DNA of 7,755 nt from a virus (Duplodnaviria > Heunggongvirae > Uroviricota > Caudoviricetes): IMG/VR virus record IMGVR_UViG_2734482544_000001, one strand, 5' to 3'. Each line of letters opens with the position of its first letter. The stretch's first letter is position 1. Positions 6,052 to 6,846 of this stretch are shown here, one piece after another. The position numbers and the translations under genes were made by a program. The notes beneath the pieces were generated by a model that had not been told where the DNA came from, ran no database searches, and worked only from the letters and a program-made list of their open reading frames with translations.

Positions 6052-6165
6052 GATTATGCTTCCTGTGATTTACTGTTATCGCTGCCTGTCACAATAGGTT
6101 GCTTTAATTCTTCCTCATCACTCACTCCTGCGACGCTCCGTGGCAGGGCCCCCCACAGGAGTACC

Positions 6166-6195
6166 TTGTAAATGTAAGGTGTTTAAGCCTAAATT
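6166..6195 (+). promoter_or_regulatory. Candidate sigma70-type promoter for the plus-strand moron gene (TTGTAA, 18 nt spacer, TAAATT)
   Basis: Hexamers read directly from the sequence in the intergenic region between the divergent small terminase and the DedA-like gene. Other hexamer pairs nearby are nearly as good, so the exact position is uncertain. Confidence 0.2.
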
Positions 6196-6248
6196 AAGTC
6201 GTATCACGGTTAAATAGCAAAGAAAAATTCACAGAAGGAAAGACATTG

Positions 6249-6758
6249 ATGGAGTGGATAAATGCTTTGATGAACTATTTTGTACTTCATCCATATCGCC
6301 TATGGGGGCTTCTTTTTATAATAGCGTTCACAAAATCCACTTTACTCATTTCGGCGATATTGCCACCAGCATCAATTATGATGGCCACTGTAATTACAGT
6401 CAGCAAGACGACTCTTTCACCATGGGAAGCTGGAATCACGGTCATGAGTGGCGCATGGTGCGGTACTATCGTTAATTACCATCTTGGTATAATAATTGGG
6501 CATATCCCTCAACTTGCATGTATAATATCAAGCCGTTCCAATACAATAGAACGGGTTCGCCTTCAGTTGCAAAATAACTCTGTGTCAATACTTTTCACTT
6601 CGCGCTTTATCGCCGTGCTGCGTTATATTGCTCCTTTGGTGGCAGGAATGTTGCAACTTCATCCAGTGAAAGTGTATACAGTGAGTCTGATTTCAGCTGC
6701 TAGCTGGTCAGCACTTTATGTTGGTAGTTTTAGCTTCGTGTTGCCTTTTTTTAGCTAA
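6249..6758 (+). CDS. DedA / YqaA-like (VTT-domain) small inner membrane protein, on the opposite strand as a moron
   Basis: ATG at 6249 with AAGGAAAG about 7 nt upstream (the ORF track starts at the TTG at 6246). The protein is hydrophobic with several predicted membrane segments and blocks resembling DedA-family proteins (LLISAILPPASIMM; GAWCGTIVNYHLGIIIG; SRFIAVLRYIAPLVAGM). The region is visibly more AT-rich than the flanking phage genes. It occupies the position between lysis genes and terminase where lambda carries bor on the opposite strand. Confidence 0.6.
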   Translation: MEWINALMNYFVLHPYRLWGLLFIIAFTKSTLLISAILPPASIMMATVITVSKTTLSPWEAGITVMSGAWCGTIVNYHLGIIIGHIPQLACIISSRSNTIERVRLQLQNNSVSILFTSRFIAVLRYIAPLVAGMLQLHPVKVYTVSLISAASWSALYVGSFSFVLPFFS

Positions 6759-6846
6759 ACTGCCCATAAAAAGCTCTTGCGAATCCAGCTTCCCCCATTC
6801 CTCTGACAACAGAATCTGATTTGAAGGATAATGAGTAAAATTACCG

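Follow-up and report, generated by a model that had tools for sequence, protein, structure and literature searches.

The 7,755-nucleotide stretch of DNA analyzed here (IMG/VR record IMGVR_UViG_2734482544_000001, Caudoviricetes; hereafter referred to as the window) represents part of a defective lambdoid prophage of the Shigella type, given on the strand opposite to its late genes. Between the genes for the small terminase subunit (terS) and the i-spanin Rz, it carries a moron-type insertion, antiparallel to the late operon, with one gene (6249-6758, plus strand) encoding a minimal, 169-residue DedA/VTT-domain protein (PF09335), assigned by homology to the inner membrane. The moron status and the DedA family assignment, taken together, are stated with high confidence. 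Judging from the sequence, we lean slightly towards an overall account in which this moron cassette would provide the lysogen with an accessory transporter of lipid or undecaprenyl phosphate (C55-P), tied to envelope stress at low Mg2+. Family membership and moron status are firm, and what is proposed below for substrate, regulation and phenotype is hypothetical.

A single DedA gene inserted between Rz and terS

The left flank of the slot is terS (5287-6051, minus strand; phrog_370, E = 7.5e-95) and the right flank is the 3' part of Rz (6847-7216, minus strand), which was taken from the list of open reading frames (ORFs), runs up to a masked run of Ns and matches the “lysis protein” and Rz of E. 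coli and phage records. The 795 bp between them contain a single sizeable ORF, on the plus strand at 6246/6249-6758. The original prediction, made from the sequence without database searches, had placed a single plus-strand gene in the roughly 800 bp between Rz and the small terminase gene, and this was borne out. In RefSeq (WP_011069285.1, “DedA family protein”), the start is TTG 6246, giving 170 residues, but the alternative ATG at 6249, giving 169 residues, is the likelier start, since in one orthologue the triplet preceding it is CTG. A ribosome-binding site, GAAGGA (6234-6239, plus strand), can be read in the sequence 9 nt before this ATG. In near-identical prophages, the ORF has already been labelled generically as “DedA family protein” by the Prokaryotic Genome Annotation Pipeline (PGAP).

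Comparison by blastn with prophages in which the site is empty showed that homology breaks off after position 6058 and restarts at 6857, delimiting an inserted segment at 6059-6856. E. coli 2024CK-00474 (L002) has 57 bp where the window has 798 bp, and Klebsiella phage ST16-OXA48phi5.2 (L003), with the same terS and Rz flanks, has a 208-bp gap containing a 45-residue ORF on the late strand. As the site measures only 57 or 208 bp in related prophages, the region is a true insertion and not a long spacer. The empty state, with the flanks about 490-510 bp apart, was found in 19 of the 25 best E. coli records, and the gene is carried by only 6 of 5426 complete genomes. The outer spacers (6059-6173 and 6769-6856) were restricted to the five to seven complete E. 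coli and Shigella genomes with the DedA gene.

The insertion also has the lower GC content that had been claimed for it. In 300-bp windows across 6151-6750, GC content was 0.40-0.42, versus 0.49-0.57 in the flanking late genes; the ORF itself had a GC content of 0.418, with 0.382 at third codon positions (GC3), versus 0.49-0.55 and 0.44-0.61, respectively, in five flanking genes. The comparison made at the same time with bor of phage lambda holds for slot and orientation, as bor immediately follows Rz/Rz1 and is read from the other strand. With bor and other lambdoid morons found between Rz and the terminase genes, the insertion shares its position, antiparallel orientation, presence/absence polymorphism, low GC content and presumed expression from the prophage. 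It differs from Bor, a small outer-membrane lipoprotein with no sequence relationship to the protein studied here, in encoding a polytopic inner-membrane DedA protein, and from lambdoid morons in lacking a predicted terminator and in having a promoter that is not of the sigma-70 consensus type.

The left spacer, unique to DedA-bearing prophages, contains a GC-rich hairpin, CUCCUG...CAGGAG, around GGCAGGGCCCCCC at 6126-6160. The fold of 6052-6180 had a z-score of -2.3 against shuffled sequences, and the hairpin falls in the late-strand leader of terS. Past the DedA stop codon, no terminator-like site was found, this sequence folding no better than shuffles, and the window had no match to any Rfam family.

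A divergent DedA subfamily

The protein matched PF09335 with 52.4 bits, versus a gathering threshold of 33.9, residues 41-161 being aligned on profile positions 3-121 of 123. No Pfam family other than VTT_dom was matched at E ≤ 0.01, and 20 of 20 close homologues carry a precomputed PF09335 assignment. The gene product had been described as “DedA/YqaA-like”. The first half of this label stands, whereas the second was rejected: E. coli YqaA was not matched by blastp at E values up to 10, and the matches obtained were to YabI, DedA, YqjA, YohD and YghB. The best paralogues among the eight E. coli K-12 DedA-family proteins (from NC_000913.3) were YabI, DedA and YqjA, at 23-25% identity. The NCBIfam model for YqjA/YghB-type proteins (PRK10847) gave 31 bits versus a cutoff of 236, and the two UptA models gave 19.9 bits versus a cutoff of 250 and 16.3 bits versus a cutoff of 300. 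By these comparisons, the protein is orthologous neither to the E. coli DedA proteins, YqjA and YghB included, nor to UptA.

The DedA domain has been described as consisting of two re-entrant loops, each followed by a transmembrane helix (TMH), with prolines at the turns (Okawa et al., bioRxiv 10.1101/2020.12.18.423352). The protein has a grand average of hydropathy (GRAVY) of +0.87, with 3 acidic and 9 basic residues. An AlphaFold2 (AF2) model based on 57 sequences had a mean predicted local distance difference test score (pLDDT) of 77.8 and a predicted template modelling score (pTM) of 0.75; an earlier model from 20 sequences (pLDDT 54.6) was not used. The predicted order, with an N-terminal TMH, re-entrant loop 1, a TMH, amphipathic helices, re-entrant loop 2 and a TMH, fits the published topology and is consistent with the membrane protein originally envisaged. 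Predicted helix breaks fall at residues 30-31, 36-40 and 121-123, flanked by P39/P40 and P129, and the model lacks the extra C-terminal helix of YqjA-type proteins. A truncated protein or pseudogene was also considered and was ruled out: all members of the clade described below are 165-180 residues long, and the protein consists of a full DedA domain plus one TMH. No meaningful match to the model was found in the PDB, by fold or by sequence, and no solved DedA structure was found there. The best fold matches in BFVD, and the only viral folds in it resembling the model, were “SNARE-associated Golgi protein” (VTT) proteins of giant viruses (TM-score 0.46-0.62, probability 0.85-0.89, E 0.4-1.7, not significant), which differ in coming from viruses of eukaryotes and in being of the TMEM41/Tvp38 type; among the bacteriophage proteins of BFVD, none matched the model.

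The protein belongs to a clade of about 50 clusters, the members of which scored 150-285 bits against a clade profile, versus at most 91 bits for generic DedA proteins. All are from Enterobacterales (Shigella, Citrobacter, Kosakonia, Enterobacter/Lelliottia, Hafnia, Morganella and Arsenophonus), and even Arsenophonus genomes of 0.84-0.93 Mb still contain members. The column corresponding to E39 of YqjA is occupied by Lys (K29) in 39 of 40 tabulated clade members and by Arg in the fortieth, whereas Glu is found in all 16 outgroup sequences aligned there. The D51 column of YqjA is Ala (A41) in the clade; this aspartate is not family-wide, YabI-type proteins having Thr. The arginines of re-entrant loop 2, R119 and R125, which correspond to R130 and R136 of YqjA and to R112 and R118 of UptA, are retained, R125 being invariant and R119 more than 90% conserved among 57 sequences. 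No acidic residue is conserved across the clade, in which the conserved charged residues are Lys and Arg. Motif 1, [F/Y]xxx[R/K], is lost (Y77-H-L-G-I81), and motif 2, Gxxx[VILM]xxxx[F/Y], is incomplete (G133-MLQ-L-HPVK-V142), an aromatic residue coming only at the next position (Y143); according to the paper defining these motifs, several accepted superfamily members likewise lack motif 1/2.

In YqjA, the D51A and R136A substitutions abolish function, and acidic and Arg residues are central in the modelled dimer and lipid site (bioRxiv 10.64898/2026.09.20.752871); in UptA, two arginines contribute to C55-P binding (PMC11474028). The clade appears to keep the anion-binding half of this site and to reverse the charge of the other half. 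The protein resembles YqjA and YghB (and also YabI and DedA) in its PF09335 domain, loop-TMH-loop-TMH order, loop-2 arginines and loop prolines, and in its inner-membrane location (by homology). It differs from YqjA/YghB in being only 23-25% identical and about 50 residues shorter, in lacking the C-terminal TMH, and in having Lys for E39 and Ala for D51. Because of these differences, it is not orthologous to YqjA, and proton coupling through an acidic pair cannot work alike in the two proteins. With C55-P flippases of the UptA/PA4029 type, it shares a DedA domain with the two arginines that bind C55-P in UptA, and a thematic connection with polymyxin resistance and with envelope remodelling of the PhoPQ type, but the equivalent of UptA E32 is Lys.

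DedA proteins have been modelled and cross-linked as dimers, with the re-entrant hairpins at the interface and E39, D51, R130 and R136 in a central position (bioRxiv 10.64898/2026.09.20.752871). The charge swap lies exactly there, as would be expected of a dominant-negative or heteromeric modifier that paired with host YqjA/YghB-type subunits through these hairpins and altered their activity. Such a role is very improbable, given the strong purifying selection on clade members as stand-alone chromosomal genes in many genera, reduced genomes included, and given that, apart from Hafnia, clade members showed no covariation or linkage with a second DedA gene. The clade is a divergent DedA subfamily rather than a broken one, because its ratios of nonsynonymous to synonymous substitution rates (dN/dS) are low (see below) and because members persist in the reduced Arsenophonus genomes.

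An intact gene in decaying prophages

The DedA ORF is under purifying selection. Pairwise dN/dS values among the Shigella and Citrobacter genes ranged from 0.14 to 0.24, with a value of 0.24 for the Shigella-Citrobacter branch. The ORF was full length at 16 of 16 IMG/VR loci, in all six complete genomes and in two GTDB representatives, and the S. flexneri, S. sonnei and S. dysenteriae contigs with the exact protein number at least 1000. The neighbouring terL, Rz, holin and portal genes are broken by insertion sequence (IS) elements or nonsense codons while the DedA ORF is intact, and terL or terS is split by IS2 or IS911 in other carriers of the gene. In Shigella, the DedA gene outlives its phage. 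The gene was present in both related and unrelated prophages at the same slot. A VTT match, predicted transmembrane helices and a conserved ORF were thus all found where examined, in keeping with the cargo gene that had been proposed.

The defective state of the prophage, the weakened promoter repeat in Shigella (see below) and a GC content that has drifted down to 42% might suggest a neutral hitch-hiker, a passively carried remnant without function in this host. We give almost no credence to this explanation, as none of the copies examined has a damaged ORF although the adjacent genes are decaying, the Shigella-Citrobacter branch bears the mark of selection reported above and the sequence is identical across the many contigs listed.

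In one Shigella-type viral contig (L046, 3634-6840), the DedA cassette lies between two inverted copies of one IS3-family element, away from both terS and Rz, in a composite-transposon-like arrangement.

A cassette shared by three phage backbones

The core of the cassette, comprising a promoter-like block and the ORF (6166-6768, plus strand), displayed 77-82% nucleotide identity, by blastn, to two other phage backbones and to a Citrobacter chromosome. The matches extended over 6174-6768 for L004-L007, 6166-6768 for L020-L022 and 6179-6769 for L008-L010, such that the shared homology begins about 75-83 nt before the ATG and ends about 10 nt beyond the stop codon. The first backbone, of the Shigella type, has a Terminase_3 large terminase, a DUF1073 portal and Rz/Rz1. 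The second, a Citrobacter youngae prophage, has a lambda-type GpA terminase, Phage_portal_2, a GH19 endolysin and different holins, and the third has Terminase_2 and Terminase_6, a DUF4055 portal and a DUF2514 spanin. In all three, the cassette lies between the lysis cassette and the terminase genes, antiparallel to them, although the terminase Pfam families differ, as do the outer spacers of the host phages. No meaningful direct or inverted repeats were found at the cassette borders, and transposon-like ends were rejected. As terminal repeats are lacking, the cassette was probably acquired by illegitimate recombination at a permissive junction between modules.

Chromosomal relatives of the subclade, at 72-74% identity (57% in C. 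amalonaticus), were found in C. meridianamericanus, C. amalonaticus and Kosakonia. The occurrence of these ordinary chromosomal relatives points to a Citrobacter/Kosakonia-like donor. A tblastn search of 50,697 phage records yielded no close relative in cultured phages, the matches having at most 30% identity and coming mostly from bacterial-looking contigs. In one IMG/VR contig with a 73%-identical DedA gene (L048, 145-4101), a dinI-DedA pair lies just outside the left end of a Mu-like prophage, recognizable from its repressor, ner and transposase A and B genes; the “viral” call for this copy probably reflects an imprecise prophage boundary.

The presence of a small inner-membrane protein gene in a slot typical of morons, on the strand opposite to the late genes and in three phage backbones, would suit a superinfection exclusion or anti-phage protein that blocks DNA entry or otherwise shields the lysogen. 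This role is distinctly improbable: none of the PADLOC defence families was matched at E values up to 0.1, the clade is mostly chromosomal and unrelated to phages, with endosymbionts among its hosts, and the transporter-type DedA domain is conserved.

Upstream repeats resembling a PhoP box

The gene had also been credited with a candidate promoter of its own. A scan revealed no sigma-70 consensus promoter upstream of the ORF, and what remains of this claim is a conserved block, consisting of a direct repeat and a -10-like hexamer, that travels with the cassette. The PhoP-box-like direct repeat of the window, TGTTTA-AGCCT-AAATTA (6180-6196, plus strand), matches KGTTTA-N5-KGTTTA at 9 of 12 positions and is a weakened copy of the repeat of the orthologues. 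The hexamer, TTAAAT (6210-6215, plus strand), is invariant in the alignment of Citrobacter and phage copies. The two elements are 13 nt apart in the window, versus 12 nt in the orthologues.

Upstream regions were compared for 41 loci (from Citrobacter, Enterobacter, Lelliottia, Kosakonia, Hafnia, Shigella and phage copies) and the window. In 32 of these 42 regions, a box matching at 9-10 of 12 positions lay exactly 12 nt before T[TC][TA]AAT, with the hexamer 33-42 nt before the start codon, whereas only 1.1% of 443 background hexamers from the same loci had a box at that spacing. Boxes matching at 11 or more positions numbered 34 in the 577 kb searched, and 31 of them fell inside the 90-nt interval upstream of the DedA gene. 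A second, distal box was perfect (12/12) in 23 Enterobacter/Lelliottia loci. Such 12/12 boxes (e.g. TGTTTAAGAACGGTTTA) lie about 100-104 nt upstream of the DedA start, in the divergent mgtE-DedA intergenic region (L059-L082 and others). In PhoP “architecture I/II” promoters, a direct (T/G)GTTTA-N5-(T/G)GTTTA box is located 11-13 nt upstream of the -10 element (PMC3335776), and the geometry of the orthologues' box would match that of these PhoP-activated promoters. The PhoP box is treated as no more than a lead, one that rests on the 12-nt spacing conserved among the orthologues and on their perfect boxes. A reading of TTTAAG-N5-ATTAAG (6182-6198) as a PmrA box was dropped, the consensus being unconfirmed.

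Magnesium transport genes in the chromosomal neighbourhood

Of 64 species-representative loci, about 33 have the Mg2+ channel gene mgtE within 4 kb of the DedA gene; it occurs there in three arrangements: divergent, at about 390 bp, in Enterobacter/Lelliottia; two genes off in Hafnia; and directly downstream in several Arsenophonus. Likewise, corA is the convergent neighbour at all eight Morganella loci. M-box (ykoK-type) Mg2+ riboswitches, scoring 107-113 bits, precede the short mgtE genes (about 333 codons) beside clade members in Enterobacter (L023, 5574-5743), an enterobacterium (L028, 3672-3841), Arsenophonus (L025, 6810-6979) and Hafnia (L029, 1436-1620). The DedA gene is never inside the riboswitch-controlled transcript. 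As the gene adjoins Mg2+ channel genes, behind a PhoP-box-like promoter, the ancestral role of the clade was probably in the response to envelope stress at low Mg2+. The gene neighbourhood points to Mg2+ and envelope stress in preference to superinfection exclusion. In Hafnia alvei, the clade member follows a TetR-MFS pair, and a second VTT/DedA gene (190 codons) and a Na_Ca_ex antiporter gene lie just downstream (L029/L030, 5035-5607 and 5898-7007).

Other DedA proteins have been connected with Mg2+. XdfA of Xanthomonas is needed for Mg2+ maintenance and for growth at low Mg2+ (PMC10470534), and either Mg2+ or Ca2+ can rescue yqjA yghB mutants of Klebsiella (PMC10846249). The clade, likened here to XdfA of X. 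campestris by description, resembles it in that a DedA protein is tied to Mg2+, through Mg2+ limitation in XdfA and through genomic association with mgtE/corA here. XdfA differs in being a chromosomal protein from another bacterial order for which the link is phenotypic, whereas the link here consists of gene neighbourhood and a promoter motif only.

These two phenotypes, together with the adjacency of mgtE or corA in four lineages, would also be compatible with a direct partner of Mg2+ channels, that is, a protein assisting or regulating MgtE/CorA-type uptake, or itself a pathway for divalent cations, rather than a lipid mover. We consider this improbable. The clade has no conserved acidic residue, having Lys and Arg instead, which is poor chemistry for Mg2+ binding; the phage copy is still maintained in Shigella and E. 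coli, which have no neighbouring mgtE; and the gene always lies outside the riboswitch-controlled transcript.

A simpler possibility is that the gene is a spare DedA copy, constitutively expressed, which duplicates the housekeeping functions of the host paralogues in membrane potential and envelope homeostasis and has no special tie to Mg2+ or PhoP. The presence of the DedA domain is compatible with such a role, as are the Kosakonia orthologues, which are preceded by an extended -10 promoter of the ordinary kind and lack Mg2+ genes in their vicinity, and the retention of the clade in Arsenophonus genomes of less than 1 Mb suggests a core function. This possibility deserves to be taken seriously, but we regard it as unlikely: the clade has replaced E39, which is invariant in the outgroup and forms part of the acidic pair of YqjA, and the mgtE/corA association and the PhoP-type geometry recur across genera and orientations.

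Proposed function of the cassette

We therefore return to the account favoured at the outset, that of a lysogen-expressed lipid or C55-P transporter. The ancestral gene would have been chromosomal, beside a corA gene or an mgtE gene with an M-box, and phages would have taken it up along with a minimal promoter. The protein made by the lysogen would be placed in the inner membrane and move an anionic lipid across the bilayer, as characterized family members do. The likeliest substrate would be C55-P, or otherwise a phospholipid. C55-P is the best candidate because the arginines are retained and because the DedA family has a record of involvement in C55-P recycling and polymyxin resistance (PMC12893004). 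A Lys/Arg cluster at the meeting point of the two re-entrant loops may hold the phosphate headgroup, and proton coupling through carboxylates in the manner of YqjA/YghB is unlikely, because both carboxylates have been lost. The native role would lie in the low-Mg2+/PhoPQ response, in which the remodelling of lipid A and envelope glycans draws on C55-P, and the benefit to the host would be envelope robustness at low Mg2+, in the presence of cationic peptides or polymyxin, or under intracellular conditions. The specific combination of a transporter with Mg2+ stress is put forward as a tentative model, of which sequence comparison leaves us only partly persuaded. Its strongest form, in which the Lys-for-Glu clade would constitute a distinct class of PhoP/low-Mg2+-induced carriers of C55-P or anionic lipids, working without carboxylate proton coupling and spread by phages as a conversion factor, seems to us quite unlikely. 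If it were true, a phage-spread factor would raise tolerance to cationic peptides and polymyxin, or intracellular survival, in Shigella and Citrobacter.

Several observations weigh against this account. On the side of the protein, the key Glu, motif 1 and the aromatic end of motif 2 have been lost, so function is not simply transferable from YqjA or UptA, and the NCBIfam scores are far under the equivalog cutoffs. On the side of regulation, scanning the cassette yielded neither an upstream sigma-70 consensus promoter nor an intrinsic terminator, and the box of the window matches at only 9 of 12 positions, with a degraded second half-site and a 13-nt spacing. A match of this quality is expected by chance about every 600 bp, and motif counts alone were not above chance in the window, L004 or L020. 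The PhoP-box signal is, moreover, phylogenetically correlated. In Hafnia paralvei, the sole near-perfect box of the locus (11/12) adjoins mgtE, about 2.5 kb from the DedA gene, and the distal box may, for this reason, serve mgtE. The microarray paper on phoPQ in Shigella Sf301 reports 117 differentially expressed genes and 38 predicted boxes, none of them with an obvious counterpart of the DedA gene, although this absence is weak evidence because the locus tag of the gene in Sf301 could not be mapped. The neighbourhood signal rests on about four lineages rather than on dozens of independent events, and the subclade of Citrobacter, Kosakonia and phage genes has lost the linkage to Mg2+ genes.

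DedA proteins are ubiquitous and have been linked to polymyxin and colistin resistance, lipid-carrier recycling and Mg2+ homeostasis, by a mechanism that is unsettled. The clade described here amounts to a natural experiment, in which the arginines have been kept and Glu has been exchanged for Lys in a bare DedA domain, under purifying selection and even in reduced endosymbiont genomes; the role of the acidic residue is therefore directly testable. For phage biology, an inner-membrane protein resembling a lipid transporter is a new class of cargo for the moron slot between Rz and the terminase genes, and one cassette of about 600 bp is documented in three different phage backbones. For Shigella, the gene is a widely distributed, intact and unstudied accessory membrane gene inside otherwise decaying prophages. 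Full-text literature searches retrieved no study of this ORF, of DedA genes as prophage morons, of a link between Shigella and DedA, or of a DedA clade with Lys for Glu. Neither morons nor DedA proteins are new in themselves; what is new is the class of cargo found in this slot, the occurrence of the cassette in three backbones, the clade signature and the Mg2+-gene/PhoP-box context.

Other features of the prophage fragment

Read from right to left, the minus strand of the window encodes the 5' end of the endolysin gene, Rz with the embedded Rz1, terS, terL, and the portal, head, DUF2213 and cement/decoration proteins. The o-spanin lipoprotein Rz1 (6891-7097, minus strand) was identified by PF06085 (75 bits) and phrog_3198 (E = 1.7e-26). 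The large terminase is of the Terminase_3 type, the portal of the DUF1073 type and the head protein Mu-F-like. The portal gene (2467-3933, minus strand), compared with the intact 488-residue copy in L001, has nonsense codons at 3756-3758 and 3556-3558 (W59stop and Q126stop) and one missense change. With two nonsense codons in this gene, the prophage cannot make its portal.

The fragment is bounded by IS elements: positions 1-84 are the end of an IS1 and positions 7670-7755 the end of an IS2, with 100% matches to the IS copies in L001. The last 22 nt or so of the holin gene abut the IS2, and the lysis cassette is truncated because this element cuts the holin gene. A masked run of 299 Ns (7217-7515) covers the endolysin/Rz junction, where the equivalent stretch of L001 is 463 nt long; either the mask does not preserve length or about 164 nt are missing from the window at this junction. 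The apparent single ORF at 6847-7647 is an artefact, because its frame is read through the Ns.

The fragment was 99.8% identical to IS-ridden prophages of genomes of the Shigella/enteroinvasive E. coli (EIEC) type filed as E. coli. Prophages with an intact context (L001, 22807-23117 and 26100-27148; L012, 7886-9649) carry a cluster of four tRNA genes upstream of the lysis genes, together with hokD and a QueH gene. In an EIEC-like O121 strain, an ipaH effector gene lies next to the tail-fibre genes of the same prophage.

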